A stretch of 64,000 nucleotides of DNA, taken from Squalus acanthias. Its lineage: Eukaryota. Positions 11,629 through 51,321 of this stretch are shown here, piece by piece. Location: the NCBI GenBank assembly GCA_030390025.1, contig CM059432.1:84198001-84262000 (forward strand). Reading direction: 5' to 3'. A model generated the notes under the pieces. That model made no database searches. It was not told the DNA's origin and was given only the letters and a program-made list of their open reading frames with translations. The position numbers and the translations under genes were made by a program. Numbering within the stretch: position 1 is the first letter of the stretch; each line of letters opens with the position of its first letter.

Positions 11629-11653
11629 GATTTACTCCTGTTTTACTTGGAAA

Positions 11654-12352: not shown

Positions 12353-12815
12353 GGGGGAAAAATTTGTGTACACCAAGAGAATTGTCGGTGTCACTGGCAA
12401 CTCAAATTAATGGCCACTGAAAATGGCTGCAGTGCTACAGTTGAAAAATTCACATTGGGGGTTGGTGATGTTTGGCACAGCGCTAACTTACCATGCAACG
12501 CCCTTCTGGTGATGTTAATGGAGGCCTCCGACCCGAAGTTCCTGTCCATAGATGGCGATGCAGCTTCTTACAGCCTGTGGGAGCGAGGTTGTGGAGTTTG
12601 TAAGAAATTATGGGCAATTAAAAGGGCTATGAATTAAAGCGGCAATGCATTCAGAACTAATAAAAATTACAATGCAGTGAAAAAATGCAGTTTTCATCCC
12701 TTGCAGCCTTTCAATAAAAAGATTACCATTAAAAAGAAGTCCCAAATGGGATTCTTCAGCACTTAAAGCTGAATTCTCTTCTGAACTTCAAAAAATGGGA
12801 GAAGTGCTTCAGCAA
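12353..12815 (+). mobile_element. Left part of a non-autonomous Harbinger derivative; its right part lies inverted at ~42592-44096
   Basis: Starts GGGGGAAAAATTTG; collinear with 39194-39651 up to GCTTCAGCA, where a Gypsy LTR interrupts it. Confidence 0.85.
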
Positions 12816-12940
12816 TGTAATTTATTATCACATGGTTTAGTATGAGCATGCTCAGTTTGCTCTGGCCTAATAAAGCAAGCACATGGACTAGCAATTCATT
12901 GTGTCTCTGTCCTTCATTTGTTCTACCTACATATATTACA
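12816..12940 (+). repeat. 5' LTR (125 bp) of Gypsy-1
   Basis: TGTAAT...ATTACA termini, internal AATAAA, followed by a PBS; 7 differences from the rc of 44097-44221. Confidence 0.93.
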
Positions 12941-12943
12941 TTT

Positions 12944-12961
12944 TGGCAACGAGGATGGGAT
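12944..12961 (+). promoter_or_regulatory. Primer-binding site complementary to tRNA-Ser(GCT)
   Basis: TGGCAACGAGGATGGGAT vs expected TGGCGACGAGGATGGGAT (17/18, using the vertebrate tRNA-Ser-GCT 3' end from memory). Confidence 0.85.
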
Positions 12962-13195
12962 CCCAAAGCCATTTTTAGGTATCATGAAAGGACACGGTAT
13001 TCAACCTTTGAGTGGACAAGTTTAAGGTGAATTTGTGACACCTAAACTGAATTTTTGCAATGTTTTACCGTTAATGCTCGTGCAGAATTGTCTGTGTTTC
13101 GCCTTCGTGTGTATGTATACACAGCAACGGGGCGTTGATTCTCACATGTACACAGGTAGCATGCTGAGTCACTGTTCAACGGGATCGGGACAATC

Positions 13196-15160
13196 ATGGC
13201 CGCGCCTACGGGATTCATCGGAAGCCTCAGCGTGTATGACCGAGATTGCAAACCATTCAGTTCTTACATTGAGCGGATGGAGATGTTTTTTAGGGCCAAT
13301 AACATTATTGAGACCGAAGGTGCAGATGAGAATATTCAAGCTCAAAATGAAGTAATTTGTGAATGAAAAAAGGCAATTTTTTCAATGGAGATCGGACTAG
13401 ATGTCTACGGAATGTTGACAAACCTACTCGTGCCAGGGAAAGCGAAGGATGCATCGTTTGAAGACATTGTTGAGAAACTCAAGGACCATTTCGACCCAAA
13501 GCCATTAGAAGTAGCAGACAGCTATAAGTTTGGTACCAGAAACCAAAAACAAAGTGAAACCATCACCATCAGTGAGTACATTGTAGCTCTTAAGAACCTG
13601 TCTTTACATTGTAACTTCGGCATGTTTTTGGATTGGGCGTTGCGAGATAAGTTTGTGTGTGGACTGGTGGATGAGCGCACACAGTCCAAGTTACTGAACA
13701 CTCCAAACCTAACGCTTGATATAGCATGCAAAATTGCCCAACTATGGAGATGGCGTCTAAGAATGCTAGGGAGTTCTGTCCAGCTCAAGAGACTAGTGCA
13801 GCTGCGGACTACAGTCACAAAGCCACCGCCAAACCTAAAGCTGTGAGACCGAGTGAGACCGGTGAGAGCAGTTCAGTGAACTGTTATCGCTGCAATGGAA
13901 GTCACTCACCACAGTCCTGCCAATACAGAAATGTGAAGTGTTTTCACTGCCAGAAGCAAAGCCATATTTCCACAACTTGCAGAGCTGGATCTAAAGCAGT
14001 AAGTAAGAACCATTCTAGTGGCAATGCAAAGCAGTGACAACAAAAGGGAGGAGTTCACAATATTGAAGTGAACACGCCTGATATTGAAGAACTAGGCATC
14101 TACAGTATTTATTTCACCAGCGGCAATGCCAGCAATCGTGAGAAAGACTTCCATACAAAACTTTTGATCAACGAGCAATGTATTGATATGTGTATCGACA
14201 CGGCAGCGGACTGGTCTATCATGAGTAAGGACACATAGGAGAGTAAGTTTAATCAAGTAACACTTACAAAGAGTACTGTAGAGTTAAAAACCTACTCCGG
14301 AGAAATCCTAGAGACATGTGGACAAATGGAATGTACAGTTCAACACAATGGTCAGTCAGTAAAGCTGCCTACTATTGTAGCGAGCTACAATAGGCCAACT
14401 CTCATGGGCAAAGACTACTTGAGTAAGTTAAAATTAGACTGGAAAAAACGCCTTCAGTGCAGATGATTCAAAGAAGTGACTCGACACAATGCTGAACTAG
14501 TACGAAAGCATGTTCACAGACAGTTATGAGGGTATCACTGGGTATGACGCACATATCTGCAACAAGTCCAACGTGAAGCCTGTCTATTATAAGGCAAGGC
14601 CGGTCCCCTATATGTTGAAAAGTCAGGTGGAGGAAGAGCTAGCGAAGCTTAGAGAGAACAGAGTGCTCGTAAAAACTGACAAAAGTGAATGGGTTACCTC
14701 GATCATGGTAGTGCCCAAAGCAGACAAAACTGTATGCTTGTGCGGTGACTACAAAGTTACTCTCAACCAAGCAGTTGACGTTGAGCAGTACCCGTTACCT
14801 ACATCGCAAGATTTGTATGCAGCACTTTCTAGGTCAAAGGTTTTCTCCAAGCTTGACCTGTCACAGGCTTACGCTCAGCTGAATGTTGACAAAGAGAGTC
14901 AACAGTATCTCACCATCAACACACACAAGGGACTGTACTCATACACCAAGCTGCCGTACGGTGTAAAGTCCTCCCCCAAAATCATCCCGGCTGCAATGGA
15001 TAAGATTTTGCAAGGAGTTCCAAATTGCTTCTGCAATCAAGACGATGTGCTGATCGCAACAAGCAGTGAGGGAGAAAATCTAGAAGTGTTAGATATAGTG
15101 CTTCAAAGGTTGAATGCCCACCATGTCAAATTGAAAAGGAGCAAATGTGCTTTTGCCCAA
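13196..15160 (+). pseudogene. gag-pol: Gypsy (Mag-like) gag-protease-RT, frameshifted and truncated before RNase H
   Basis: MAAPTGFIG start; LRDKFVCGL; two Zn knuckles (CYRCNGSHSPQSC, CFHCQKQSHISTTC); protease CIDTAADWS; RT LCGDYKVTLN, FSKLDLSQAY, LPYGVKSSP, QDDVLI. Confidence 0.92.
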
Positions 15161-16061
15161 TCACTTGCCCAAAACCTTAAATCTGTGTCCCCTAGTCCTT
15201 GTACCATCAACTAGTGGGAACAGCCTTTCCCCGGCTAGCCTATCCAAACCCGTCATAATCTTGTACAGCTCTATCAAATCACCCCTCAACCTCCTTTGCT
15301 CTAATGAAAACAAATCCAGCTTCTCCAACCTGTCCTTGTAGCTAAGATCCCCCATCCCCGGAACCATTCTGGTAAATCTCCTCTGCACCCTCTCAAGGGC
15401 CTTCACATCCTTCCTAAAGTGTGGTGACCAGAACTGGATGCAATACTCCAGTTGTGGCCTAACCAGCGCTTTATAAAGGTTCAGCATAACTTCTCTATTT
15501 TTGTACTCAATACCTCTTTTTATGAAGCCCAAGATCCCATATGCTTTGTTAACCACCCTCTCAATATGTCCTGCCAACTTCAGGGACCTATGCACATTAA
15601 CTCTCAGGTCCCACTGTCCCTGCACACTCTTTAAAACTGTGCCATTAAGTGTATATTGCCTCTCCCTGTTCCTTCTGCCAAAATGCATCACCTCACACTT
15701 CCCTGTATTAAATTCAATCTGCCACTTGTCTGCCCATTCTGCTAGCCTTTCTATGTCCTGTTGCAGTCGATTGGTATCATCGGCAAATTTAGAAATTCTA
15801 CTCTGTTTTCCAATATCCAGGTCATTTATATATATCAAAAAAAGCAGTGGCCCCAGCACTGACCCTTGGGGAACACTACTGTCTACCATCCTCCTTCTGA
15901 AAAACAGCCATTTACCACAACTCGCTGTTTTCTGTCCTTAAGCCAATTCCTTATCCAAGCTGCCACTGACCCACCTATTCCATGAGCCTCAATTTTGTAA
16001 CCAGCCTTCTATGTGGTACTTTGTCAAACGCCTTCCAAAAATCCATGAAGACAACGTCCAT
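15161..16061 (-). mobile_element. CR1-A, 3' part of ORF2; its 5' part is at 44530-48208 on the opposite strand
   Basis: RT motifs VPQGSVLGP and KFADDT; begins at (M)DVVFMDF where the 44530-48208 copy stops (DEGNAMD). Confidence 0.9.
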
Positions 16062-19000
16062 AGACATAGAAACATAGAAAAATAGGAGCAGGAGGAGATC
16101 ATTTGGCCCTTCGAGCCTGCTCCGCCATTCAATATGATCATGGCTGATCCTCTATCTCAATACCATATTCCCGCTCTCCCCATACCCCTTGATGCCTTTT
16201 GTGTCTAGAAATTTATCTATCTCCTTCTTAAATATATTCAGTGACTTGGCCTCCACAGCTCTCTGTGGTAGAGAATTCCACAGATTCACCACCCTCTGAG
16301 TGAAGAAATTTCTCCTCATCTCAGTCCTAAATGTCCTACCCCGTATCCTGAGATTGTGACCCCTCGTTATAGACCCCCGAGCCAGGGGAAACATCCTCCC
16401 TGCATCCAGTCTGTCTAGCCCTGTCAGAATTTTATACGTTTCAATGAGATCCCCTTTCATTCTTCTAAACTCTAGTGAATACAGGCCTAGTCGACCCAAT
16501 CTCTCCTCATACGACAGTCCTGCCATCCCAGGAATCAGTCTGGTGAACCTTCGTTGCACTCCCACTCTGGCAAGTATATCCTTTCTTAGGTAAGGAGCAC
16601 AAAACTGCACACAGTACTCCAGGTGTGGTCTCACCAAGGCCCTGTATAACTGTAGTAAGACATCTTTGCTCCTGTACTCAAATCCTCTTGCAATGAAGGC
16701 CAACATACCATTTGCCTTGCTATCTACTTGCTGCACCTGCATGTTTGCTTTCAGTGACTGGTGTACAAGGACACCCAGGTCCCTTTGTACATCAACATTT
16801 CCCAATCTATCACCATTTAAATAATACTCTGCCTTTCTGTTTTTCCTACCGAAGTGGATAACTTCACATTTATCCACATTATACTGCATCTGCCATGTAT
16901 TTGCCCACTCACTCAACTTGTCTAAATCGTCTTGAAGCCTCTTTGCATCCTCCTCACAACTCACAATCCCACCTAGTTTTGTGTCATCAGCAAACTTGGA
17001 AATATTATATTTGGTTCCCTCATCCAAATCATTGATATATATTGTGAATAGCTGGGGCCCAAGCACTGATCCCTGCGGTACCCCCCTAGTCACCGCCTGC
17101 CACCTCGAAAAAGACCCATTTATTCCTACTCTCTGTTTCCTGTCTGTTAACCAATTTTCAATCCATGCCAGTATATTACCCCCAATCCCATGTGCTTTAA
17201 TTTTGCACACTAACCTCTTATGTGGGACTTTATCAAAGGCCTTCTGAAAAACCAAATACACCACATCCACTGGTTTCCCCTTAACTATTCAACCAGTTAC
17301 ATCCTCAAAATCTCCAGTAGGTTTGTCAAACACGATTTCCCTTCCAGAAATCCATGTTGACTTTGTCTAATCCCGTTGATATTTTCTAAGTGTCCTGTTA
17401 TCACACCCTTTATAATAGACTCTAGCATTTTCCCTACTACTGATGTTAGGCTAACCGGTCTGTAGTTCCCTGTTTTCTCTCTCCCTCCTTTTTTAAATAG
17501 TGGTGTTACATTTGCCACCTTCCAATCTGCAGGAACTGTTCCATAATCTACGGAATTTTGGAGATGACAACCAATGCATCCACTATTTCCAAGCTTACCT
17601 CTTTTAGTACTCTGGGATTCAGACTATCAGGCCCTGGGGATTTATCAGCTTTCAGTCCCATTAATTTCTCCAGCAATTTTTTTACTAATACTAATTTCCT
17701 TTAATTCCTCCTTCTCACTTGACCCTTGGTTCCCTAGCATTTCTGGGAAGTTATTTGTGTCCTCTTCCGTGAAGACAGATCCAAAGCATTTGTTTAATTT
17801 CTCTGCCATTTCCTTGTTCCCCATTATAAATTCTTTCATTTCTGACTGTAAGGGACCTACATTTGTCTTCACTAATCTTCTTCTTTTTACATACTTGTAG
17901 AAGCTTTTACAATCCGCTTTTATGTTCCTTGCAAGTTTACTCTCATACTCTATTTTCCCCCTCTTAATCAATCTCTTGGTCCTTTTTTGCTGAACTCTAA
18001 ACTGCTCCCAATCCTCAGGCTTGCTACTTTTTCTGGCAACTTTATATGACTCTTCTTTGGATCTAATACTATCCTTTATTTATTTTGTTAGCCACGGTTG
18101 GGCCGCTTTTCCTTTTGTGTTTTTGCGCCAGAAAGGAATGTATAACTGTTGCAATTCATGTATTCATTCCTTAAATGTTAGCCATTGCCTATCCACCATC
18201 ATGCCTTTTAATGAAGCTCCCCAATCTATCATCGCCAACTCACTCCTCATACCTTCGTAGTTTCCTTTGTTTAGATTTAGGACCCTAGTTTCGGATTGGA
18301 CTTCTTCACTTTCCATCTTAAAGAACAATTCTATCATGTTATGGTCACTCTTCCCTAAAGGACCCCGCACAAAAAGATTATTAATTAACCCCTTCTCATT
18401 GCACAATACCCAATCTAGGATAGCGTGTTCCCTAGTTGGCTCCTTAATGTACTGGTCTAAAAAACCATCTCGTACACACTCCAGGAATTCATCCTCCACA
18501 GTATTATTGCTTATTTGGTTTGGCCAGTCTATATGTAGATTAAAGTCACCCATGATTACTGTCGTACCCTTGTTACATGCATCTCTAATTTCCTGTTTGA
18601 TGCTGTCCCCTACATTACCACTACTGTTTGGAGGCCTATAGACAACTCCCACCAATGTTTTCTGCCCCTTGGTGCTTCTTAGCTCCACCCAGACTGATTT
18701 TACATCTTTATTTTCTGAGCCAATATCCTTTCTCACTATTACTCTGATTTCATCCTTTACTAATAACGCCACCCCGCCTCCTTTTCCTTTTTGCCTGTAT
18801 CCGTAATCGCAATTATATCGTATCCGTTTACATCTATTTGCGCTGTTAATTCGTCTACCTTATTACGAATGCTTCGTGCATTCAGATACAGTGCCTTTAG
18901 ATTTGTCTTTTTAACATTTTTAGACATCTTAACATTTTTTTGTACTATGGCCCTATTTCTCTTATTACTATTTTTTCTTACCCGGACCCTATTGTTAGTG

Positions 19001-19260
19001 CACTCTTGTTTGTACGCTCTGTTCCTGACACAATCTGGTTATCCTTACCCCGATCACTTTCCTACACTGCTTCCTTATCCCTTCTCTTTAGCATTCTCGA
19101 GTTCTCTCCACTGGGACCCTCCCCCCCACCCCGCCCCGATTTAGTTTAAAGCCCTATCTACCACCCTAGTTATTCGATTCGCTAGAACTCTGGTCCCAGC
19201 ATGGTTCAGGTGTAGTCCGTCCCAAAGGAACAGCTCTCTCTGTCCCCAATACCGGTGCCA
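16062..19260 (-). mobile_element. CR1-B: ORF1 end, APE endonuclease, RT, (tttctatg)n tail
   Basis: 372-aa RT ORF 16152..17270; endonuclease motifs VGVVYRPP, IMGDFN, SDHN in 18164..18772; ORF1 esterase end DGLHLN. Confidence 0.95.
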
Positions 19261-19261
19261 G

Positions 19262-20475
19262 TGCTGGTGCTGGAGGGAGTGAATGTTTAAGGTGGTGGAT
19301 GGGGTGCCAGTCAAACAGGCTGCTTTGTCCTGGATGGTGTCGAGCTTCTTGAGTGTTGTTGCAGCTGCACTCATCCAGGCAAGTGGTGAGTATTACATCA
19401 CACTCCTTACTTGTGCCTTGTAGATGGTGGAAAGGCTTTGGGGAGTCAGAAGGTGAGACACTCGCCGCAGAATACCTAGCCTCTGACCTGCTCTTGTTGC
19501 CACAGTATTTATGTGGCTGGTCCAGTTAAGTTTCTGGTCAATGGTGACCCTCAGGATGTTGATATTGGGGGATTCGGCGATGGTAATGCCGTTGAATGTC
19601 AAGGGGAGGTGGTTAGACTCTCGCTTGTTGGAGATAGTCATTGCCTGGCACTTCTGTGGTGAGAATGTTACCTGCCACTCGTCGTCCAGGTCTTGTTGCA
19701 TGCGGGCATGGACTGCTTCATTATCTGAGGAGTTGTGAATGGCGCTGAACAGTGTGCAGTCATCAGCGAACATCCCCATTTCTGACCTTATGTTGGAGGG
19801 AAGGTCATTAATGAAGCAGCTGAAGATGGTTGGGCCTAGGACACTGCAATGAGGAACTCCTGCAGTGCTGTCCTGTGGCTGTGATGATTGACCTGCAACC
19901 ACCACAACTATCTTCCTTTGTGCTAGGTATGACTCCAGCCAGTGAAGCATTTTCCCCCTGATTCCCATTGACTTCAGTTTTACTAGGGCTCCTTGATGCC
20001 ACACTTGGTCAAATGTTGCCTTGATGTCAAGGGCAGTCACTCTCACCTCACCTCTGGAATTCAGCTCCTTTGTCCATGTTTGGACCAAGGCTGTAATGAG
20101 GTCGGGAGCCCAGTGGTCTTGGCGGAACCCAAACTGGGCATCAGTGAGCAGGTTATTGGTGAGTAAGTGCCGCTTGATAGCAATGTCGATGACACTTTCC
20201 ATCACTTTGCTGATGATTGAGAGTAGACTGATGGGGCGGTACTTGACAGAGTTGGATTTGTCCTGCTTTTTGTGGACAGGATATACCTGGGCAGTTTTCC
20301 ACATTGTCAGATAGATGCCAGTGTTGTAGCTGTACTGGAACAGCTTTGCCAGAGGCACGGCTAGTTTGGGAGCACAAGTCTTCAGCACGATAACCGGGAT
20401 GGTGTCGGGGCCCATAGCCTTTGCTGTATCCAGTGCGCTCAGCCGTTTCTTGATATCACGTGGAGTGAATCAGAT
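19262..20475 (-). mobile_element. Second LINE family (CR1/L2 group), RT fragment inserted in CR1-B
   Basis: 340-aa ORF with GPDTIP, YRPISLLS, QFGFR, LDIKATFD, FADDC. Confidence 0.9.
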
Positions 20476-21118
20476 TAATTAAATTAATTAAATTAAGTTT
20501 CGTTTTTAAAATTTAGTTATATGCTGTATGTTAACTTAAAAAACTTAGCCCACAGTCACTGCCAATCACTTACCTGCCTTACCTGTGACGTCACACAGCA
20601 GTTTTTTGTTGTTGTTGCAGGTCTGCTGCTGCTTTTAACCCCACTCTCGGGCTTCGGTCTGCTCCCACTCAGGTCCGCCGCCGCTCTGTGGGAGAAGTTA
20701 GGAAAAGCAAGGCAAAGCAGCACCTCCTTCCCCCACTTCACCGAACTCCCACACTTACCAAACTCCAAGTTGTTCACTCTGTGCCCGCTGCACTCACAGG
20801 CCCCTGTATTTATTCTGTTTGTAACTCAGGTGAGTCAGCACTGCTCTGCTATTGTTTCAGGAACCAGTTTAATCTGGCTAGCTAATTAACTAACTACAGC
20901 TACTCTCCAGTAGGAGAGCTTGCTTGTTTGTCTCTGCTTAAGCCTGAAAGAAACTTTAAAATTTTAAGTTTAAAATTTAACTTAAACAGTTTCTCTTATT
21001 TAAGAGCTACTAGCAATTAACACTGGATTTTAAAAGAGATTAACCCTTAAAAGGGATTAACCCTTAAAACTCCCACACTTACCAAACTCCAAGTTGTTCA
21101 CTCTGTGCCCGCTGCACT
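20476..21118 (-). mobile_element. Probable CR1-B 5'UTR with a duplicated ~51-bp terminal unit
   Basis: Lies upstream of CR1-B ORF1; identical segment at ~20744-20794 and ~21068-21118; abuts the broken Harbinger-2 transposase. Confidence 0.55.
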
Positions 21119-22155
21119 TATCAGAGCACTTATTCTACCTCCAATTAAGTGAGGAGCAGTGTATTAGAAGGCGCCGCTTCAGCAAGGAGGTGGTCACAGA
21201 ACTCTGCCACCTCCTGCAACCAGACCTTGAGCCTCAGATCAGGACAACCACAGCTCTCTCAGTGGCAGCCAAGGTCACCGTCGCCCTCAATTTCTTCGCC
21301 AGCGGATCCTTCCAGTTTGCAACAGGAGATATAGCTAACATCTTGCAGTTTGCTATCCATCGCTGCATCTGGGAAGTCACAGAGGCTCTCTACAGTAGAA
21401 GAAGGGACTACATTTCCTTCCCCATCACCAGAGAGAAGGAAGACGAATGTGCATGTGGCTTTGCCAGGATAGCGGACTTCCCCATGGTGCAGGGTGCCAT
21501 TGACGGCACCCACGTGGCTTTGCGGGCACTGCATAACAATCCTGAGATCTTCTGTAATCACAAAAGCTGCCACTCACTTAATATGCAGTTGGTGTGCGAC
21601 CACAGACAGCGAATCCTCAATGTGAATGCCCGCTATCCTGGCAGCAGCCATGATGCCTTCATCCTGCGCCAGACCGGTGTGCCAGCACTCTTCCAGCCAC
21701 CACATCAAACTCGTGGCTGGCTGGTCGGAGACAAGAGCTATCCACTCTCCACCTGGCTCATGACACCCCTCCGCAACCCCAACACTCCTGCCCAGCACTC
21801 ATATAATGAGAGCCATGCTGCCATCAGGAACATCATCAAGCAGACCATTGGGGTGATCAAGCAATGGTTCCACTGCCTTGACCGATCGGGAGGAGCCCTC
21901 CAGTACTCGGTTGAGCGGGTGTCCCATTTCGTCGTGGTCTGCTGCATGCTCCACAAGTAGGCCATAATGAGGGCCCAGCCCTTGCCACCAGGGATTGCGG
22001 GACTACCTCAGGAGGAGGAAGAGGGAGAGGAGGAGGAGAAGGCAGATGAGGAGGAGGCAGAGGAGGAGGAACAGGAGCAAGGGAGGAGGCAGCCACTCAA
22101 TCTGCCTTCCGGAAGGGCAGTCCATGACTGTCTCATCAGAATGTGGTTCCAATAA
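21119..22155 (+). pseudogene. HARBI1-like transposase, N-terminus lost
   Basis: Open frame of about 280 codons: GAIDGTHV, YPGSSHDAFIL, VGDKSYP; the third catalytic Glu reads Lys (RNIIKQTIG); premature stop at 21960. Confidence 0.92.
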
Positions 22156-22369
22156 ATTAAATCCCAGATCCCTGTTGCTCACCACATCCCCATCATTCCA
22201 TCCCTGTTGCAGGCCATATCACAGTGCAAAGCTGAAATGAGAGACACCACAAAATCATCCAAAGCCAATTAATAAATTTATCAATAATCAGTGAACACAT
22301 ATTTACAGCAACATTATTACCTATTCACCCGTGTGCAATCCCTTAGTGCCTCTCATTACTGTGCCTTTG

Positions 22370-24222
22370 CCTACTCTAGTGCTCCTACAAAGTGTTGGCC
22401 CAGTGGCTGCAGCACGGCTGGTGGAAGGCTGCTTAGTGTCCATGCGGGAGACTTCAGATGGCCTTGCAGGATGACCTCAACCAGCTCTGGGCCTGGAAGA
22501 CCCGGCTGTAGACTGCACCACCTCAGCATGGGCGGCAGCTGTCTGGGCTGGCTGGATGACAGGTAGCAACAAGGACAATGGCAGAGTGCCAGTGGTAGGA
22601 GCAGGAATGCTGTCATCCTGACAGAGGACAGCAGCTTCCTGCTCCACGGACCCACTGCCACTCCCCTGGGGCAGCAGCTCAGCACCCCTAGCAATCTGTT
22701 GCAGCACAGATTGCTAGCCTGCTGCGACACCGTGAAAGCCCTGGTCGACGGTGGTAGACCCAGCCACGATGGCAGCAGTCAGAGCTTGTGTTGCATCAAG
22801 CTGCGACTGCGTGAGAACAGTCTGAGATTGAATGCCACCAAGCATAGACTGCATTACAGCACTAAGACGTTGCATCTCTTCCATCTGTGCTGCAATGGAA
22901 GCTGCCAGATCGCCCATCACACGCGGCATCAGGTCTGGGTCGCCACGGTCTCTCTGGGAGTCTATCATCCTTTGCAGACTGGAAATGATGGGCTCCATGG
23001 TATGCGCAGAGCTCTGTGCAATGTTGGAGGCGGACTCCTCCACACTCCTTACCATTGCCGAGAGGCTGTTGGCCACCCTTGCCATTGCACCTATCATCTC
23101 CATGTGCATGCCTATCACCCTTCTTCTAAAGGCCTCCTGATCGAGGTCCTCATCTGAGTCCTGTGCAGCAGAACTCATGCACGAACTTGCCCTTCGGGGA
23201 GCTGGCTCCCGATCTACCCTTTCCCCCTGGCCTTGCTGCAGCTGACTCGTTCCCGGTGCATCACCCTGTGCAGATCCCGCTACTATACTAGCCTCTAAAG
23301 AACATGTAGTGCCAGCATCTGAGCTGGTGCCTGCGGGTGAGACATGTAGTGATGCGGTGTGTTCCTCCTCCGCTTTTCCCGCCTCACTCTCAACGGTGCC
23401 CTCAGGGACAGGCTGCTCAGGTGTTTCCTCATCATGTGAAAGCATAAAGACACAAGATTCGGGTTAAGGTGAGGGGAGGGGGCAGGAAGGGAGAAATGCA
23501 TGCATACAGCATGATTAGCTGGAAAGTGAGAAACACTTGTGGAGTGAGGGGGAAGTGGGATGTGAGAAGAAGGAGTAGGGATGAACATACTGTTGTTGTC
23601 CCCAAGGGGGTCAATGTCACTGGTGGCCACGGCGCCCACCACCTGGTGCCCAATAATGTACAGCACTCGAGTCTCCAGCTCAGACAGTGGTTGGGTGTCA
23701 GCTTGTCCCCCGTCTGTGCGCACCTGCTCCCTCCTGTTGTGAGCCACCTTGGCCTACAAGAGAAAGGAAAGTGTGTGAGTGAGTGTGGAGCAATGTGTCT
23801 GGGTGATGTGCCTGCCATAGTTGAATAGCTGTGATTGTGTGAAAGGTGTGAGATGTGGGTGTGAGTGTTGTTACATAGAGATTGTTGGCGTGTGACTGCT
23901 GGGGGTGTGGTGCTTTGGGCAGTGTGTGCAGACTGAGGTTCAGATGGTGGCATGTAGCATTTGTTGAAGCATTGATTCACCCTGACCACCCAAGTGAGGT
24001 CATTAAATTTCTTCCTGCACTGTGTGTGGGTCCTGGGGACCACAGTGCTACCCGAGATGTGCAGGGCTACCTCCCTCCACATGGTGCGGAAGACTTGCGG
24101 CGAGGGTCTCCTGCTACTTGTGGGTAGAGCACCGCCCTCCGTCTCTCCACAGCGAACACCAACGCCTCCAATGCATGATTGCAGAATCTGCGGGCTCTCT
24201 CCCTGGGGTGTGGATCTGCCAT
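22370..24222 (-). pseudogene. Harbinger-2 Myb/SANT gene, 3 exons
   Basis: MADPHPRERARRF..ALEALV..VERRRAVLYP; WREVA..QCRKKFNDL; donor at 23980, acceptor at 23753 (KVAHNRREQVRTDGG), donor at 23590. Confidence 0.85.
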
Positions 24223-24522
24223 CATTACGGCTGTTTGAGTCGTCCGGCTCCTTCTTCTTGACCAGCTGCTGCTGGCTGAGACGGCTGCACAGCCAGCAAT
24301 GATGAGAATGAGGTTCTGCAGCATGATTGAACCTCCCCTTTAAGAACTGGAAAGAGCCTGTGGCAATGATGACTTGTGATTTGACTGCACCTGATATTGG
24401 TCAGCATTTTGAGTTTAACACCACTGAGCTAGGCCATTAGCACTTGATTTAGCACTCCAATCTTTTCTTTGCGCAGTGAGACTTAATTTTGCATGCAATC
24501 TGAAGCATTAGCACCTGGCGCT

Positions 24523-24738: not shown

Positions 24739-24802
24739 GCGCTAATTCTCAAACTTTTCAAAAGTTACCGCCCATTCCTGGGCTATATTGAATTTCTCCC
24801 TG

Positions 24803-25550: not shown

Positions 25551-25560
25551 AAAAGACATA

Positions 25561-32053: not shown

Positions 32054-32098
32054 TGTACGTCTGATCTCCACTTTGCAGCTGTGATCTATCAGATCAGC

Positions 32099-38400: not shown

Positions 38401-38809
38401 ATAAAAGTTTTCCCCTTTCTCAGCTGCTGCTGTTTCTGCTAAAACCATCAGCAGCTTCTGCAGCGCATTCTCGGCCGCCACTGCTTCTTGGATTGGCCGT
38501 TAGGCTGTTCTTAATTGCCACTTGCTCCCCACCCCCACTAGTCGGTTGCTCCATAGCATGTTATCCTATCTAGAATTATTTTTACTTACATGATTAGTTC
38601 CATCCAGTATTGTGAAAGGGCAGACTCATAACAAAATGCATGCATGCGCTTCCTGCCTACAATACCTAACTTCATGTCACTTTTTTAGACAGACCTATGT
38701 GTAAATATGTTTACAATTATAAATTCCAATGTCCACATTTATAATGGAAACCACTTATGTAAGCCTATCACCTTGTAATTGCACAATTTAGTCATGGGGG
38801 CACTATATT

Positions 38810-41712
38810 GGCACGGATTTTGCGGTCAGCGGCGAACGAATGGTGCTAGCAATTTATTACACTTATACTTGCCCACTTTCTATGGGCTTTTGCACTCTAA
38901 GTTGCAGTTATTAGAAATCAAAAACAGCACGGCACCCTCTGCAGGGGATCTGGGACCTGTGTGAACAGGGAAAGCAACTGTGCATCTCCTTAACCAATCG
39001 GATTAAAGAATCCTTACTGAGGCACACAGAGTCTAAACCAGGAAGTGTAAGTTCAATGCCAAAAGAAAAAGAAATAAAATGAAAGAAAGAATAATGGGAT
39101 TAAGAGAAAGAGACAGAAAGAAAAAGTAAAACAATAATTTCATTTTATTAATTTTTAAAAATCTCCAACAATAATTAAAATGTGAACGAATGAGGCCTAG
39201 AAATTCGTGTTCGTCATGAAAGTTGTTGGTGTCACCAGCAACTAGAGTTAACGGCCGCTGAAAATGGCCACAACGCTAAGGAGAATAAGTTCATCTGCGG
39301 GGGGCTGGAGATTGGTGGCGCAGCGCTAACCTTCTGTGCAACGCCCTCCTGCATTAGTGGAGACCTCCGAGGCGAAATTCCCAGCCTGAAGTGACGTTCG
39401 AGCTTTGCACAGCCTCTGGGAGCGAGGCTGTGGAGCTCGCAAGGAATTGTGGGCAATTAAAAGGGCTATGAATTAAAGGGGCAATGCACTCAGAACTAAT
39501 ACAAATTAAAATGCAGTGAAAAAATGCAGTTTTCAGCCCTAACCGACATTCAAAAAAATTGTAACCTTAAAAAGAAGTCCCAAATGTGATTATTCAGCTC
39601 TTAATGCTGAATTCTGTCCTAAACTCAAAAAATGGGAAAACTGCTTCAGCACTAACACAAATGGCTCAGCAAGCCAGGGAAGGGGCACCCATGGTCTCGC
39701 ACGCAGCACTCCAGCTTTGTGCAGGGGGTCAACACTGCAAGACAGGTCTTCTACCCACAGGGCCAGGAGGCCTTCCAGAAAGAAGGATGTGGGACCACAT
39801 CACCGAGGTCATTACTGCCAGCAGTGCCCAAAGAAGCTTCGTGACTTCAGACCACTGGTCAAGGTCAGTGAATGCATGTTCAAAAACCATCTTCTACCAA
39901 CTGCACCACTAGCCTCACACATTGCGCTTGCACAACCCCCACCCCCAATCACTCACCTACCAACAATCTGCACCAATCACAAGGCACAACTCCTATTCCT
40001 AACCTCACCTCACCCTCTTGGAGGAGACGGTGCTAGCCATTCTTGGCAGGGGCATGGCTGACCCCTTGGCCAGCGGCGGGGCTGAAAGAATATAAGATGT
40101 TGGTATCCTCATATGTTATCCTCCTTCTCGCATGCACCTTTTGCTTTCCCACCCTCCCCTCATTCCACTCCACCCTTGTACCTTCCTCATTTCACACACC
40201 AACAAAATGCAGCCTGCCCAGCCAGTAGTTGACAAAGAAGAGGGAGAGGAGAGTGAAGAAGAAGAAGAAACAACATTACTTGATTTGACATGACCAGCCA
40301 CCAGCTCCTCAAGGTCAACCAGCAAGGCCATTTGCAGGGTTCCCCACTGAAAGTCAGCAGCCTCCCACCAGCCATGCTGCAGCCACTGGGATAGCACTGC
40401 GTGACATCAGTCAGATAGGCAAAAGCACACACAAGACAGTCACTAAGAGAATGTATAAGGGTGATGAATTGATTACTTGATGTCATGTTGGATGGATAGA
40501 TGTATAAAGTTGGATTGGAAGGTTTGCTTTGTGGTGGCTTTTATTTCAGCATTGTGGTGAAGAGGATGCTGTGATAGTCAGTAACAGAGGGAAAATAAGG
40601 TGTGGGACAAATGTTGAAAAGGGAATTGGGGTTGAGGTCACTGGTACCGCAGGTGGATGATTCTATCCCAGATATCCTGGCCAGAAAGGGGCTGTCTGGG
40701 TTGCATCCTTCCTTCTGCTTCCTCCTCTTTAGCTTCCTCCTCTTCTGTGTCTTCCTCTTCCCTCTGTGAGCGAATGCTGTAAATCTGAAATGATAGCATA
40801 AAATGTTGGAAATAAAGGTGAGGCAGCATCTCGACCTGAGAGGTGAACCCTGTTTTTCTCTCCACTGATGTTGCCTCACCCGCTGAGTATTTGCAGCATT
40901 TTCTGTCTTCTCAGAGGCCTTCCTTTAACATCCAAGGCCTTGCAAGCGTCCAGCAGCACTCCCTACACACTTAAAAAACTTTTAACATCTATTGCAGCAA
41001 TCCACTATTTCAATAAAATCAAAAAAACTCAGTCCAAAATCTTAATTCCAAACTTACCTTAATGATGTGTGTGTCCCTTTAGGAGGTGCTGACATCGCCA
41101 CTGCCAGCCTGCTTGCTGCCAGATTTACCTGGCATGCTTAGGACCTAGCACTGAATTCAGCACTAGCAGCGAACTTCGGAGTGGTGAGGTTAAGTCGGTG
41201 TTGCACTCCAATTGATGTCACCACGCTGCCATTTTTTTCCAGGACACTGCCAGTTACCGGCAGCACAAAGGGAAGGAGGAAAATGGCCATTTTTCGCCAT
41301 TTCATGGCGCTAGGGAGTGGCGGTAAGTAGATGAATTTCTAGCCCTGAGACTCCACACTTGTAAAAGTTAATTTTCAGTGCCAAAGAGGTTGTTTGGCAG
41401 TAATTAAGACTTATACACCGTTAAAAATTCTCTTACACTTGAATTGATAAGCCCTAACTTTTTCTGGTGTGTTTAGTGGGTATCTATTACGAAAGTACCC
41501 CAACTTCACGCCATTGCAGGTGTTCTAATGCTGAGTCTCTTGGCGAGATACCGGTATAGCAAAGCATTGAGAGGAGCAGGGAAGCTCAGACAGCAACTTT
41601 CTGATTTCCACATTTAACTATGCATGAGCGGATGGCGGAAGTTGCTGTCCAATTTACTCCTTAATAACAGTGTGCGTTGATAGCCTCACCATTATTTCTT
41701 AACATTTCCCCA
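38810..41712. mobile_element. Older MITE-like repeat hosting the 39194-41345 insertion
   Basis: Starts GGCACGGATTTT; right end degenerate, so the extent is uncertain. Confidence 0.45.
39194..41345 (+). mobile_element. Complete non-autonomous Harbinger derivative (2152 bp) with remnants of both genes
   Basis: TIRs GGCCTAGAAATTC and (rc) GGGCTAGAAATTC; TSD TGA; Myb exon remnants at 39660-40400. Confidence 0.9.
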
Positions 41713-41869
41713 CAAATCACTTAAAATAATTTCTGACATTTTTTCACTACCATTTTTTCCTCAGTAACTAAAATTTCCAATGTACAAAATAATGGTTTAA
41801 ATATAATAAAAATAAATATAAATCATATTTCACAATAACATGATAATTTTTTCCACTGAATTTTCTGCA

Positions 41870-42590
41870 TTTCTGCAGCTACTGATTTGCTAAATCATAC
41901 TCTCTCCACCACCTTTGATGCCCTTGTCCCCACTAAAATCATTACACTCTCTCACCCTAGTTGTTCCACCTGGTATACCCCTCATCTTCGCTCCCTGAAG
42001 TCCAAGGGACGCAGACTTGAACGTCTTTTGCAGACAACTGGTCTAATCATCCATCACCAGCACTACCGGACCTGCTCTCCATCACTAAAATCGCTCACTA
42101 TTCTAAGATCATCCAGGACAGCAAAAATAACATCGGGCTTCTCTTCTCCACCACTATCTTCTCAAACCACCCTCACCTGCTTCCTCCTCCCTCACCTCCA
42201 ACAATAAATGTGAGGAGTTCATGGACTTCTTTATTAAAAAGATCAACAACATCCGTTCAACTGCTTCTGCATTCAATTCCCTCTTTCCCTAGCCCACCAG
42301 AACTTACTTCCTCTCCGTTGTCTCCCTACCCTAACCCTAAATTTGCATATTTCTCTAATTTCTCTCCTAACTCCCCTCTTGCCCTTTCAAAGTGCATCTT
42401 GTCATTGAGACAGACCTCCTTGAACCTGTTCCCACTAAATTGCTGACCACCCAACTTCCCTTCCTGGCTCCCATGTCAGTGGATAGTGTTAATGGTTCTC
42501 TCTCCTCAGGTATTGTCCCCTTTTCCTTCAAATCTGCCATCATCACCCCTCTCCTCAAAAAACCAACATTTGACCCCTCCGTCCTTAACC
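41870..42590 (+). mobile_element. L2-like LINE ORF2 fragment
   Basis: WYTPHLRSLK; VNGSLSSGIVPFSFKSAIITPLLKKP. Confidence 0.8.
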
Positions 42591-42591
42591 A

Positions 42592-44096
42592 CACCTGGGA
42601 AACCCAGCATGCAAACAGACTGACAGAGGCGCTGTTAGCACCTCTTAAAAGGACACACACATCTTTCAGGTAAGTTTGCATTTAAGCTTTTGGACTGGGA
42701 TTTTTGATTTTATTGAAGTAGTGGCTAAAAGTTTTTTAAGTGTGCAGGGAGTGCTGCTGGACATTTGCAAGGCCTTGGATGGTAAAGGAAGGCCTCTGAG
42801 AAAACAGACAATGCTGCATATACTCAATAAGTCAGGCAACATCTGTGGAGAGAGAAACAGAGTTCACATCTCAGGTCGAGATGCTGCCTGACCTGCTGAG
42901 TATTTCCAGTATTTCATGCTGTCATTTCAGATTTACAGCATCCGCCCGCAGACGGAAGAGGAAGACACAGAAGAGAAAGAAACAGAAGAGGAGGAAGCTG
43001 AAGAGGAGGAAGCAAAAGGAAGGATGCATCCCTGACAGCCCCTTTGTGGCCGGGATATCCGGGATGGAATCATCCACCTGAGTTCCCAGTGACCACAATC
43101 CCAATTCCCCTTTCAACATTTGTTCCACACCTTACCTTCCCTGTTACTGACCATCACAGCATCCTCTTGGCCACAATGCTGAAATAAAAGCCACCACAAA
43201 GCAAACATTCTCATCCAACTTTATACATATATCCATCCAATATGACATCAAGAAATCAACTCATCACCCTTATGCATTCTCTTAGTGACTGTCTTGTATG
43301 TGCCTTTGCCTATCCGACTGATGTCACACAGTGCCATCCCAGTGGCTGCAACAGGGCTGGTGGAAGGCTGCTGACTTTCAGTGGGGGACACTTCAAATGG
43401 TCTTGCTGGTCAACCTTGAGGAGCTGGTGGTTGGGAGTGTCAATTCAATTGTCTTCTTCTTCACTCTCCTCTCCCTCTTCTTGGTCAACCACTGGCTGGG
43501 CAGGCTGCATTTCATTGGTGTGTGAAATGAGGAAGGCACCAGGGTGGAGTTGTGGTGAGGGGAGGGCAGGAAAGCAAGAGGTGCATGCAAGAAGGAGGAT
43601 TACGTATGAGGATACCAGCATCTTGCATCCTTTCAGCCCCGCCGCTGGCCAGGGGCTCAGCCATACCCCTGCCAAGAATAGCCTGCACTGTCCAAGGGGG
43701 TGAGGTGAGGCTAGGAATGGGAGATGTGCCTTGTGATTGGTACAGATTGTTGGTAGGTGAGTGATTGTGGGGAAGGGTGGTGGGGAGGTCGTGCATTAAG
43801 AAGTGTATGAGGCTCGTGATGCAGTTGGTAGGAGATGGCTTTCGAAGATGTATTCACTGACATTGACCAGTGGTCTGAGGTCATGAAGCTTCTTTGGGCA
43901 CAGGTGGTGGGGGCGACATTGCTGGCAGTGACGGCCTCGGTGATGTGGTCCCACATCCTACTTTCTGGAGGGCCTCCTGGCCCCTGTGGGTAGAGAACCT
44001 GTCTTGCAGTATTGATCCCCTGCACAAAGCTGGAGTGCTGCATGCTAGACCCTGGCTGCCCCTTCCCTGGCTTGCTGAGCCACTTCTGTTAGTGCT
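42592..44096 (-). mobile_element. Right part of the Harbinger derivative that starts at 12353
   Basis: Reverse complement is collinear with ~39648-41140 and starts AGCACTAAC immediately after the 3' LTR. Confidence 0.9.
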
Positions 44097-44221
44097 TGTA
44101 ATATATGTGGGTAGAACAAATGAAGGACAGAGACACGATGAGTTGCTAGTCCATGTGCTTGCTTTATTAGGCCAGAGCGAACTGAGCATACTCATACCAA
44201 ACCATGTGATAATACATTACA
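44097..44221 (-). repeat. 3' LTR (125 bp) of Gypsy-1
   Basis: Inverted copy of 12816-12940; preceded on the minus strand by the polypurine tract AAGGGGGAAAGCAG (44222-44235). Confidence 0.93.
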
Positions 44222-44530
44222 CTGCTTTCCCCCTTAAAAAAAAATGTATTCCCCTCTCAAATACAACAAAACTATTGACCCACCTTTCCCAGCATTACAT
44301 GTACCACATAACAAAAACTCCTGGCTTTTTTTCTTTTAAATGAACTACAAATCCAGTTTTCTGACACGTTTGCAGAGCCTTCCTGATCTCCTTACAGAAG
44401 GTTTTGGTGTTGAACCAATTTTTGGGCTGTTTTGTTTTGGTTCCAAACTCAAAGATGATCCTATTTCTATCTCAGGCTTGTTTGAACCTGGTACTTCAGT
44501 TACTGAAGTCTGAACTGAGTCAAACACATG
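44222..44530 (-). pseudogene. pol: Gypsy-1 pol C-terminal tail and 3'UTR/PPT
   Basis: Reads ...PKPSVRRSGRLCKRVRKLDL* (stop at 44345), typical of Gypsy post-integrase tails. Confidence 0.75.
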
Positions 44531-47500
44531 TATGGAGTGCACATCCTGTGCCATGTGGACAGTCCTGGATGCTTCGCGTAGCCTGAACGACCACGTGTGC
44601 AGGAAGTGTCACCAGCTACAGCAACTCGAGCTCCAGGTTTCGGAGCTTGAGCGGTGGCTGGAGACACTGCGGTGCATCCGTGAGGCTGACAGTTACGTGG
44701 ATAGCATGTTTCAAGAGGTGGTCACCCTGCAGCTTAAGAGTATGCAGGCAGAGAGGGAATAGGTGACCACCAGACAGAAGAGGACGACCAGGCAGGGTAG
44801 TGCAGGAGTCCCTGGAGTGCATCGCGCTCTCCAACCAGTATTCTGTTCTGAGTACTGGTGAGGGCGATGGTTCCTCTGGGGAGTGCAGCCAGAGTCAAGT
44901 CCACGGCACCACAGGTGGCTCAGCTGCACAGGGGGGGAGGAAAAAGAGTGGAAGAGCAATAGTGGTAGGGGATTCGCTAGTTAGGGGAGCAGACAGGCGT
45001 TTCTGCGGCCGTAGACGTGACTCCAGGATGGTATGTTGCCTCCTTGGTGCCAGGGTCAAGGATGTCACTGAGCGGCTGCAGGACACTGAGGGGGGAGGGT
45101 GAACAGCCAGAGGTCATTGTCCATATCGGTACCAACAACATAGGCAGAAAGAGGGATGAGGTCCTGCAGGCAGAGTTTAGGGAGCTAGGAGAGAGATTAA
45201 AAAGCAGGACCTCAAAGGGAGTAATCTCCGGATTACACCTGGTGCCACGTGCTAGTGAGTACAGGAATAGGAGGATAGATCAGATGAATGCGTGGCTAGA
45301 GAGATGGTGCAGGAGGGAGGGCTTTCGATTCCTGAGGCATTGGGGCCATTTCTGGGGAAGGTGGGACCTGTACAAGCCGGACGGGTTACACCTCAACAGA
45401 GCCGGGACCAATATTCTCGCAGGGAGGTTTGTTAGTGCTGTTGGGGAAGGTTTAAACTAGCTTGGCAGTGGGATGGGCACCAGCATATAGGAGTAGAAAA
45501 GAGGAATAAGGTGCATAAAAGAGTGAGGGGTAGAAATTAGGTCGCGCCCCATTTGGGGCGCAAATATCGTCTGGACGCAAATATTAGCGCCTGGCGCTAA
45601 TTATCGGCACTGACTGGAAACTTCACTTTTACCGCCCCGGGAGGTGAGTGGAGCGCTAAAGCAGGCGCTGCACACCTGTCTTAAGGCGCAAAGGCCAAGG
45701 AGTGAGGCGCTACCTCAGAGCGCTGGCGAAGCTCATGTAATGTCAGTCAGCAATGGAACACACACACAATGGCACGGGCCAGTTCTTAAAGGGGATGGTT
45801 AATCTTGCTTTCCATCCACATCCTGTTCATTGCAGCCTTGAATCTCGGCCTGGAGAGACTTGCACATCAAATGTGCTGGAAAGAACAATGGAGAGTACCA
45901 GGCAAAGAGCTCAGAGTGCAGCTCCCACAGTCTCTGCTAAATCGATACAAGGAATGGCAAATCAAAATGAACCTGCAAAGTGCTGCTCAGTACCCAAAAC
46001 TCCTTCCCACAACGTTGAATCTCTCCAGAAGTCTCTCCCTCTCTCTCTCAGAATGCGTAGTTCAAAAATGCCACCAACAATAAAAGACAGGAAGAGGCCC
46101 CCTTTAAATAGCGCCCCCCCCCAGCCCCACAGCGATTGATAGCGTTCCAGTCTTCTGGTCGTTGGAAGCGCCAGGCGGTAAGGCAGGGGGCGCCACTCAA
46201 TTTCCGCTCCAGGGCGCCACAAGGGCGTTGCACCATGGAATGACGTCACAATCTGCGCGCGCAGGTGGTCGCAGCGGTAAGTTTTAGCGCCGCCGCACAA
46301 TCTCAAGTTAAGTTCCGGAGCGGCGCAAACATCGCTGCGCCCGGGCGTTAGCAGCTTTGCACCCCATTAGCACCCTCTTAAGGCGCTAACGGGAGGCGCA
46401 ACCAACTGAATTTTTACCCCTGAGTGTGTTGGATAGTACTAGAAAAGATAGTACTAGAGGCAGAAGTAGTACCATATTAGATAGGAGCAGACTAAGAAAG
46501 ACTACGAAAAATGCAAAAATGGGTTTAGAATGCATGTACGTAAACACACAAAGTTTGGTGAATAAGGTTGGTGAGCTACAAGCACAATTAGCTGTGTGGC
46601 AATATGATGTTGTGGCAATAACGGAAATGTGGCTTAAAAATGGTGAGGACTGGGCACTTAATATTCAAGGGTACAAGGTGTTCAGAAAAGATAGGGAAGG
46701 AAAAAAGGGAGGTGGGGTGGCAGTGCTGATTAAGGAAGACATTGTAATGTTGGAAAGGGAGGATGTTCTTGAGGGGACAAGGACAGAATCCATTTGGTTA
46801 GAGTTGAGGAGCAAAAAGGGTATGATCACGCTATTGGGGTATTCTATAGGCCTCCAAATAGTGAGAGGGAGGTAGAGGAGCAAATCTGCAGGGAAATCAC
46901 AGAGGTATGCAAGAGCTACAGAGTGGTGATATTGGGGGACTTTAATTACCCAAATATCAATTGGGATAATGCTAGGGTAAAGGGAAAGGAGGGGGAGGAA
47001 TTTCTGAAATGTGTTCAGGAGAATTTCCTTGACCAATATGTTCTTGGCCCAACTAATAAGGAGACATTGCTGGATCTGGTGCTGGGGAATGAGGTGGGCC
47101 AGGTCGACCAAGTGTCTGTGGGAGAAGACTTGGGTACGAGTGATCATCGTATCATAAGATTTAGATTAGCAATGGAGAGGAGCAAGGAACATTCTAGAGT
47201 GGAACTTCTAAACTGAAATAGGGCTAACTTCAATGGGATGCGAAAGGATCTAGCCAGGGTAAAATGGAACCAAAAACTGATAGGACAAACTAACGGAACA
47301 ATGGGTGATCTTTAAGGAGGAGATGTTCCAAGTATAGGCTAGGTACATTCCAACAAGAGGGAAGGGTAAGGGAAACAAAGCAAGGGCTCCCTGGATGACG
47401 AGGGAGATAGAGAAGATGATGAAACAAAAAAAGAGGGTGTATGATGCATGTCAGGTGAATTCTTCAAGGGAGAACAAGACCAAATACAATAAGTTGAGAG

Positions 47501-48208
47501 GGGATGTGAAGATGAAAATAAGATTGGCAAAGAGAGAATATGAGAGTAGAATGGCGTTAACATAAAAGGGAACCCAAAAATCTTCTACCAGCATGTAAAC
47601 AGTAAGCGGGTAGTAAGAGGCGGGGTGGGGCCGATTAGAGACAAAGAAGGTGATATATGATTAGAGGCGCAGGGCAAGGCTAGAATACTCCATGAGTACT
47701 TTGTATCGGTGTTTACTAAGGAGGTGGATGCTGACAAAATATCGGTAGAAGTGGAAAAGGTAGAGGCAATGGAAGGGTGAAAATTGATAGACAGGATGGA
47801 CTAGAAAGACTGGGTATGCTTAGAGTGGACAAGTCACCTGGTCCAGATGGCTTGCATCCCAGGTTGCTAAGGGAATTGGGGGAGGAGATAGTGGAAGGGC
47901 TTGCCATAATTTTCCAATCTTCCCTAGATGCGGTGGAGGTGCCTGAGGATTGGAAAGTGGCAAATGTGACACCATTGTTTAAGAAAAGGTGTAAGGGCAA
48001 TCCCAGTAACTACAGGCCGGTCAGTTTAGCATCAGTGGTGGGTAAAGTTTTAGAAACAATAATCAAGGAAAATATTAAGGGGCACTTGGAGAGGTTTAAG
48101 CTAATTAAGGAGAGCCAACAAGGATTTGTAAAAGGCAGATCGTGTTTGACTAATCTGATTGAATTTTTTGATGAAGTAACAGAGGATTGATGAAGGGAAT
48201 GCAATGGA
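44530..48208 (+). mobile_element. CR1-A 5' part: ORF1 (Zn finger, leucine zipper, SGNH esterase; 44532-45460) and ORF2 APE/RT start (from ~46511)
   Basis: CTSC..CRKC; VVGDSLVRG; HIGTNN; DGLHLN; VAITE, GGGVA, YRPP, GDFN, SDH; KSPGPDG; NYRPVSL. Confidence 0.93.
45527..46420. mobile_element. GC-rich Harbinger MITE (894 bp) in the CR1 inter-ORF region
   Basis: GGGGTAGAAATT and AATTTTTACCCC; TSD TGA. Confidence 0.92.
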
Positions 48209-49718
48209 TTAAATAAATACTTTGATTCTGTCTTCATGGAAGAGGACACAAATAACTTCCCAGAAATGCTAGGGAACCAAGGGTCTAGTGAGAAGGAAGA
48301 ATTAAAGGAAATTAGTATTAGTAAAAAAATAGTGCTGGAGAAATTAACGGGACTGAAAGCCGATAAATCCCCAGGGCCTGATAATCTGCATCCCAGAGTA
48401 CTAAAAGAGGTAGCCATGGAAATAGTGGATGTATTGGTTGTCATCTTCCAAAATTCTATAGATTATGGAACAGTTCCTGCAGATTGGAGGGTAACAAATG
48501 TAACCCCACTATTTAAAAAAGGAGGGAGGGAGAAAACAGGGAACAACAGCAGTAGGGAAAATGCTAGAGTCTATTATAAAGGATGTGATAACAGGACACT
48601 TAGAAAATATCAATGGGATTAGACAAAGTCAACATGGATTTATGAAAGGGAAATCGTGTTTGACAAACCTACTGGAGTTTTTTGAGGATGTAACTGGTAG
48701 AATAGATAAGGGAGAACCAGTGGATGTGATGTATTTGGATTTTCAGAAGGCCTTTGATAAAGTCCCACATGAGAGGTTAGTGTGCAAAATTAAAGCACAT
48801 GGGATTGGGGGTAAAATACTGGCATGGATTGAAAATTGGTTAACAGACAGGAAACAGAGAGTAGGAATAAATGGGACTTTTTCGGGGTGGCAGGTGGTGA
48901 CTAGTGGGGTACTGCAGGGATCAGTGCTTAGGCCCCAGCTATTCACAATATATATGAATGATTTGGATGAGGGAACCAAATGTAATATTTCCAAGTTTGC
49001 TGATGACATGAAACTAGGTGGGATTGTGAGTTGTGAGGAGGATGCAAAGAGGCTTCAAGGCAATTTAGACAAGTTGAGTGAGTGGGCAAATACATGGCAG
49101 ATGCAGTACAATGTGGATAAATGTGAAGTTATCCACTTCGGTAGGAAAAACAAAAAGGCAGAGTATTATTTAAATTGTGATAGATTGGGAAATGTTGATA
49201 TACAGAGGGACCTGGGTGTCCTTGTACACCAGTCACTGAAAGCAAACATGCAGGTGCAGCAAGCAGTTAGGAAGGCAAATTGTATGTTGGCCTTCATTGC
49301 AAGAGGATTTGAGTACAGAAGCAAGGATGTCTTACTACAGTTATACAGGGCCTCGGTGAGACCACACCTGGAGTACTGTATTCAGTTTTGGTCTCCTTAC
49401 CGAAGAAAGGATATACTTGCCATAGAGGGAGTGCAGCGAAGGTTCACCAGACTGACTCCTGGGATGGCAGGACTGTTGTATGAGGAGAGATTGGGTCGAC
49501 TAGACCTGTATTCACTAGAGTTTAGAAGAATGAGAGGGGATCTCATTGAAACGTATAGAATTCTGACAGGGCTAGACAGACTGGATGCAGGGAGGATGTT
49601 TCCCCTGGCTGGGGGGTTTAGAACGAGGGGTCACAGTCTCAGGATACGGGGTAGGACATTTAGGACTGAGATGAGGAGAAATTTCTTCACTCAGGGTGGT
49701 TAACCTGTGGAATTCTCT
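48209..49718 (+). mobile_element. CR1-B', inverted near-identical relative of ~16265-17798
   Basis: 380-aa RT ORF 48561..49703, very similar to 16152..17270; 3' end truncated at the Gypsy-2 junction. Confidence 0.93.
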
Positions 49719-51320: not shown

Positions 51321-51321
51321 T

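Follow-up and report, generated by a model that had tools for sequence, protein, structure and literature searches.

We report here a locus in the genome of Squalus acanthias that is best read as an inversion of 30.4–33.5 kb, most probably produced by non-allelic recombination between two inverted copies of a LINE family, CR1-B. The locus lies in a window of 64,000 nt (CM059432.1:84,198,001-84,262,000; assembly GCA_030390025.1, 3.71 Gb in 3,882 sequences), about 79% of which is covered by repeats when matched to the repeats collected in this analysis. Halves of three mobile elements, a Harbinger derivative, the retrotransposon Gypsy-1 and the LINE CR1-A, lie approximately 31 kb apart on opposite strands with matching target site duplications (TSDs), which confirms the observation from which the first-pass annotation started. 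These three elements are nested round one ancestral site, and are therefore evidence for the left breakpoint only. Re-orientation is directly demonstrated only for the 7.1-kb block 42587-49719, which formerly adjoined 12353-16268 in the other orientation. Because this block ends at two microhomology junctions (42586 and 49719), we infer the turning of the 25 kb in between, and hence the extent of 30–33 kb, from the in-register left junction.

Table 1 Features of the locus, with positions counted from the first letter of the window.
Feature	Position	Strand	Remarks
PIF/Harbinger derivative, non-autonomous, left part	12353-12815	+	Ends in TSD copy AGCAA (12811-12815)
Gypsy-1, 5' part	12816-15155	+	5' LTR (12816-12940), PBS, decayed gag-protease-RT; deletion junction at end
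Junction insert	15156-15159	+	4 nt; with its neighbours repeats the 8-mer at 15165-15172
CR1-A, 3' half	15160-16061	-	Begins at TSD copy ATGGA (16061-16057)
CR1-B copy 1 (putative chimera)	16062-21118	-	Tail of X at 16062, in register into 5' part of Y
Left arm of inverted homology, the left breakpoint interval	16269-17798	-	
Minimum proposed inverted block	17799-48208		30.4 kb; 33.5 kb if crossover was at tail end of arms
Harbinger (DDE_Tnp_4 transposase)	21119-24400	+	Adjoins 5' end of Y
L2-like LINE fragment	41868-42586	+	Cut on 3' side; junction with right part of Harbinger derivative
Harbinger derivative, right part	42587-44096	-	Starts at TSD copy AGCAC (44096-44092); last ~200 nt absent
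Gypsy-1, 3' part	44097-44533	-	Internal stretch, PPT, 3' LTR (44221-44097)
CR1-A, 5' half	44531-48208	+	ORF1 esterase, endonuclease, RT start; ends in TSD ATGGA (48204-48208)
CR1-B copy 2	48209-49719	+	5'-truncated start of X; right arm, the right breakpoint interval
Gypsy-2 fragment (gag-protease)	49713-51324	-	Joined to CR1-B copy 2 by microhomology

The outermost host is the Harbinger derivative, whose halves each align to an unbroken copy in the window (39194-41345) and abut at AGCAC. The split proposed for this element therefore stands as regards the meeting of its halves, but not as regards its wholeness, as the joined copy lacks the right terminal repeat with the rest of its end. Identity to the unbroken copy is 80.6% of aligned columns for the left half and 89.3% for the right half, and against other copies both halves show the same pattern of identities as unbroken copies do. 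The target site reads CTTCAGCACTA in 7 of the 10 other Harbinger copies that were parsed there, 10 of the 11 retrieved copies being parsable. The unbroken copy has inverted ends with TGA on either side (a 3-bp TSD) and matches the flanks of a DDE_Tnp_4 element at 21–24 kb, features that assign it to PIF/Harbinger.

Gypsy-1 is bounded by LTRs of 125 nt that start in TG, end in CA and differ at 7 positions, with a primer-binding site (PBS) directly after the 5' LTR, a polypurine tract (PPT) before the 3' LTR and outer flanks reading AGCAA and AGCAC. Apart from the terminal TG and CA, these features had been noted at first pass, and they were borne out by direct comparison. The TG..CA LTRs, PBS, PPT and short TSD, with an RT (RVT_1 profile match at 14501-15211) straight after what we take from its motif to be the protease, identify the element as Gypsy-type. 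Because LTR likeness by itself proves nothing, the pairing of the two LTRs rests on their Harbinger host; 29 other LTR copies are 92–96% like the 5' LTR and 92–99% like the 3' LTR. Unbroken copies match the 5' part up to 15155, which corrects the end point of 15160 given earlier, and match the 3' part from 44533; at least ~1.05 kb that two other copies possess between these points is absent. A stretch of Gypsy-1 about 15 kb to the left of the window start was considered as the missing middle and rejected, since it belongs to a separate copy with both LTRs. This copy (L117:1916-5479) has a 5-bp TSD and LTRs with a short tandem duplication, and lies inside a Harbinger transposase gene.

CR1-A lies within Gypsy-1 and is itself interrupted, stopping at ATGGA on the plus strand (48204-48208) and resuming at TCCAT (16057-16061), exactly as the first reading of the letters had it. 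When the halves were aligned separately to 19 other copies they proved complementary in 17, with a 6-nt overlap (ATGGAT); one of the remaining copies gives a 4-nt overlap and the other is interrupted by another insertion. The two halves are of matching age, as judged from distances to the column majority of 2.3–3.0% and 2.0%. The final ~250 nt of CR1-A are missing, and another repeat lies in its 5' half at ~45.5-46.4 kb. CR1-A and CR1-B, for which CR1 is presumably the right clade name, have the characters of CR1 LINEs, namely matches to Lipase_GDSL_2, Exo_endo_phos and RVT_1 and a short tandem-repeat tail (16062-16090). The earlier claim that one flip restores all three split elements thus holds for the complementary halves with their TSD overlap but not for complete elements, given that Gypsy-1, CR1-A and the Harbinger derivative have all lost sequence, and the wholeness first assumed for the joined elements gives way to extra deletions at 15155, 42586 and 49719.

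The element that interrupted CR1-A is a CR1-B copy, here called X, whose TSD copies (ATGGA) no longer flank one copy: that at 48204-48208 stands by CR1-B copy 2 and that at 16061-16057 by copy 1. The second partner, Y, is represented by the remainder of copy 1, and its TSD cannot be read, its tail having been deleted. The inverted homology announced at first pass was confirmed between 16269-17798 and 49719-48208, at 94.7–94.8% identity over aligned columns. Across these arms both copies are collinear with 56 family members, with neither gain nor loss inside the homology; copy 2 lacks its final ~207 nt, and in copy 1 the CR1-B sequence stays in register over 3 kb past the shared stretch, as it does in other family copies. 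Because copy 1 runs in register from its tail to its 5' region, the left junction is homologous. At another locus (L165), a CR1 has entered CR1-A tail first, a few bases at most from the ATGGA site, in the orientation opposite to X.

We propose the following history, for which the nesting order, the TSD halves and the junctions can be read directly at the locus and the timing of the steps is conjectural. The Harbinger derivative would have received Gypsy-1 (TSD AGCAC), Gypsy-1 would have received CR1-A, and CR1-A would then have received X, a 5'-truncated CR1-B of ~1.74 kb, with TSD ATGGA. Another Harbinger, ~30 kb away, would have taken up a near-full-length CR1-B, Y, oriented opposite to X. 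After the insertion of both, an in-register crossover somewhere in the 1.5 kb common to X and Y would have rendered both copies chimeric, leaving X with its tail at 16062 and its 5' end at 48209. The elements would have been trimmed by separate end-joining deletions, whose junctions are present at 15155, 19264, 42586 and 49719, and of which that at 49719 may have accompanied the flip.

The position of the crossover within the arms was not located, as the 56 CR1-B copies contain no subfamily-linked columns and a change-point permutation gave p = 0.75. Since the family is star-like and has no linked columns, the crossover is unmappable and the diagnostic-SNP test suggested by the first-pass annotation is without power. 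A gap of ~20 nt in copy 2 was considered as a subfamily mark and rejected, as it is a recurrent deletion of 5–25 nt to which no column is linked. Deletions of this kind, with differing ends, occur round a short CpG palindrome in the RT region (17448-17463; 48537) in 29 of the 56 copies, a frequency inflated by the fact that nearly all of these 29 came from the search with the deleted copy as query. The 5' region of Y contains identical direct repeats of 51 nt (20744-20794 and 21068-21118), a unit that occurs once in other CR1-B copies or in short tandem arrays nearby.

Several junctions at the locus were produced by deletion. The junction at 15155 has cost Gypsy-1 at least ~1.05 kb and CR1-A its tail, and the four inserted nucleotides, taken with the surrounding letters (15153-15172), are likely to reflect locally templated end joining. 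Copy 1 has a 61-nt deletion at 18797 and carries an RTE-type LINE (19264-20474) in place of ~880 nt of Y. The junction at 42586, where the Harbinger derivative meets a LINE fragment that we take to be of the L2 family, has a microhomology of ~5 nt (GTCCT), and that at 49719 has one of 7 nt (TAGAGAA), which is found at that place in the Gypsy-2 protease region in 8 of 11 copies. The Gypsy-2 fragment (49720-51324) is without its 5' LTR and all sequence past the protease, includes another CR1 (~49976-50425), and has no partner piece within 40 kb on either side. The left part of the Harbinger at 21119-24400 was likewise not found up to 40 kb beyond either side of the window, and because this host of Y has lost its other half, no split element marks the right breakpoint.

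These junctions are the ground for the alternative that survives best, namely that nothing but the 7.1-kb block 42587-49719 changed place. X and Y would have been co-oriented and recombined with each other, the stretch between them would have been deleted, and part of it would have been recaptured the other way round, at a distance of ~25 kb and through microhomology, either as an excised circle or as a template-switch product, the middle never having been inverted. Such a history would be in keeping with the GTCCT and TAGAGAA microhomologies that bound the block, would make the missing tail of Y, the left part of its host and the right end of the Harbinger derivative one contiguous loss on the circle, and is not opposed by any element tying the middle block to either model. 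However, it calls for what we judge to be a rarer class of event, and comparable deletion junctions abound in the vicinity where nothing was inverted (15155, 18797 and 19264/20475). With so many of them about, the evidence would in any case run out at such a junction. In its template-switch version, part of X would moreover be duplicated, yet the arms share just two derived letters. We therefore consider recapture of the block improbable; if true, it would be a base-resolved record of the re-integration of germline circular DNA in a cartilaginous fish.

The inversion between CR1-B copies could also be apparent, if the assembly had switched strand across the two copies and the animal carried the unsplit order. 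The sequence order expected from such an error is identical, and the CR1-B family is abundant, with at least 14,553 candidate places in the genome. We compared contigs from 4 of the 23 public runs with 10200-21500; one run matches the unique left flank with 2 differences in 716 nt, and none of the short contig matches listed crosses an arm or a junction. Against an error of assembly, the arms are just 1.5 kb long and 5% diverged, with identical runs of at most 60 nt, and the region is free of gaps within a 154-Mb sequence, so that nothing points to a scaffolding flip at a gap: no N letters occur in the window, or in 175 further loci totalling 794 kb. Long reads generally resolve repeats of such length and divergence. 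With arms so short and diverged and no gap in the region, mis-assembly appears unlikely.

A further question is whether the arms were the substrate of the inversion or its product, as staggered breaks or a replicative inversion could themselves have generated the 1.5-kb inverted arms by duplication. This route is reportedly known in Drosophila, and the right arm does span nearly all of X and end at a microhomology junction. Nevertheless, the arms do not behave as the sister copies that an inverted duplication would leave. They are 94.7% identical to each other, compared with 95.5% to 56 other CR1-B copies, and their distances to the column majority are 2.69% and 2.85%. The two derived letters common to both compare with a mean of 1.7 and a 95th percentile of 4 in 1,540 random pairs, and no gene-conversion tract was found between the arms, the longest identical run being 60 nt against a median of 97–110 in other pairs. 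Copy 1 also runs in register 3 kb past the shared stretch, which requires a second, pre-existing element. We thus regard staggered breaks as very unlikely. By these comparisons the arms, which show no trace of duplication or conversion, appear to have been inserted independently in one burst, and because they behave as independent insertions they are likely to be the recombination substrate of the inversion and not its by-product. A divergence of ~2.8% would correspond to ~4e7 generations at the 7e-10 per base per generation given in a portion of PMC10587355, an age that we do not trust, coming as it does from decayed repeats and from the rate of another species. As the age has no lower bound, the inversion could still segregate.

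The composite junctions are rare genome-wide. Patterns of 25 letters for the junction at the 5' LTR and of 21 letters for that at the 3' side, with one mismatch allowed so that diverged cases are missed, each occur at 2 places in the genome, compared with 2,421 exact empty Harbinger sites. The two junctions of a pair lie 31 kb apart on opposite strands at this locus, and 5.05 kb apart on one strand on sequence C9. The pattern for the junction between the CR1 tail and CR1-A is found only here, compared with 4,574 exact empty sites, diverged cases again being missed. With the Gypsy/Harbinger and CR1-tail junctions this rare, a single flip with its crossover within the inverted CR1-B pair, as the first-pass annotation had proposed, is supported as the simplest history. 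That annotation had also warned that many Gypsy copies at the AGCAC site of this Harbinger family would weaken the evidence of these two elements; just one other filled site exists, that on C9.

At the C9 site (C9:26562718-26567797) an unbroken second Gypsy-1 occupies the same AGCAC position and strand of a related Harbinger. We considered whether it is a copy of the composite in the window and rejected this, since 13 derived letters are common to its Gypsy and that of the window (10–26 for nine others) and its Harbinger is no closer to that of the window than other copies are. Under uniform targeting, ~0.0004–0.002 extra same-site insertions of Gypsy-1 would be expected, hinting at a target preference for the AGCAC site; no other Gypsy-1 pair shares a site among the 20 flanks parsed. 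An account without any rearrangement, in which the halves are what deletions have left of separate insertions at favoured sites, gains some colour from the independent strike on C9 and from the one CR1-A copy in 19 with another CR1 near its ATGGA site (in the other orientation), but it requires two nested four-element stacks at identical sites within 31 kb with exactly complementary losses, and is nearly excluded by the junction counts, the CR1-tail junction being unique genome-wide.

About 80% of 17799-48208 is repeat-masked, and an unmasked stretch of 1.3 kb (35300-36600) resembles a solo LTR by eye. A Pfam search with 61 unmasked frames, drawn from within the block and 40 kb on either side, gave no match, and short exons would escape it; because no host gene is recognised in the block, no phenotype is expected. 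The T/A skew of unmasked DNA is +0.032 +/- 0.016 in the middle block and +0.072 and +0.061 in the near flanks, and this common sign weakly disfavours an old flip. Over 144 kb, neither base skews nor the orientation counts of LINEs gave a usable signal. In the older elements the left pieces are more diverged than those on the right, at 10.3% against 6.0% in the Harbinger, 6.1% against 3.9% in Gypsy and 6 against 1 of 125 positions in the LTR, which is weak counter-evidence that may be explained by the differing parts of the elements compared and by subfamily structure.

If real, the event would be a base-resolved case, in a shark-like genome, of an inversion with CR1 LINEs as its substrate, and nested insertions would make such events legible from a single assembly. 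We found no paper dissecting a CR1-mediated inversion in a shark in a search by title or abstract start, for which literature coverage was thin. According to the cited part of a preprint survey of ectopic recombination in vertebrates (PMC13320814), partial LINE copies are substrates in all clades, cartilaginous fishes being among those surveyed. That part focuses on insertions and deletions, and inversions and duplications make up <0.2% of calls and are left undissected. Inversions thus seem poorly counted in vertebrate surveys, and a test for TSD halves on opposite strands could count them genome-wide and audit assemblies.

The mechanism is already textbook, and the locus is a clean case of a well-known process. 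As far as the excerpts of Lee et al. 2008 (PMC2603318) go, retrotransposon recombination-mediated inversions (RRMI) in human and chimpanzee are recognised by chimeric elements with unmatched TSDs, and 12 of 49 events had accompanying deletions. Here too, oppositely oriented LINEs of one family lie at the breakpoints, chimeric and with unmatched TSDs, but the elements are CR1 in a shark-like genome instead of L1 in primates, the event is deduced from the nested elements of one assembly, and the TSD of Y itself is lost. In the portion of Balachandran et al. 2022 that we cite (PMC9675761), all 15 inversions among transposable element-mediated rearrangements (TEMR) have their junctions in oppositely oriented elements. 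Judged by its letters, our locus would belong with both classes, having inverted copies, a displaced TSD, in-register junctions and pre-existing partners. Homology-driven LINE-1 TEMR have a median similarity of 93.5% and a junction microhomology of 34 bp, comparable to the 94.7% and the runs of at most 60 nt seen here, whereas the partners in LINE-1 inversions are ~97% similar to each other; extra complexity was seen in none of 8 LINE-1 TEMR inversions, whereas here the right arm ends at a deletion junction (PMC9675761, same portion). TEMR inversions are polymorphic and range from 93 bp to 25.4 kb, and L1 recombination-mediated inversions average 14.3 kb in human and 3.1 kb in chimpanzee; at a probable 30.4–33.5 kb, the inversion described here would, if real, exceed these and stand at the large end of LINE-mediated inversion sizes by the figures in the cited parts of the human studies (PMC2603318, PMC9675761).
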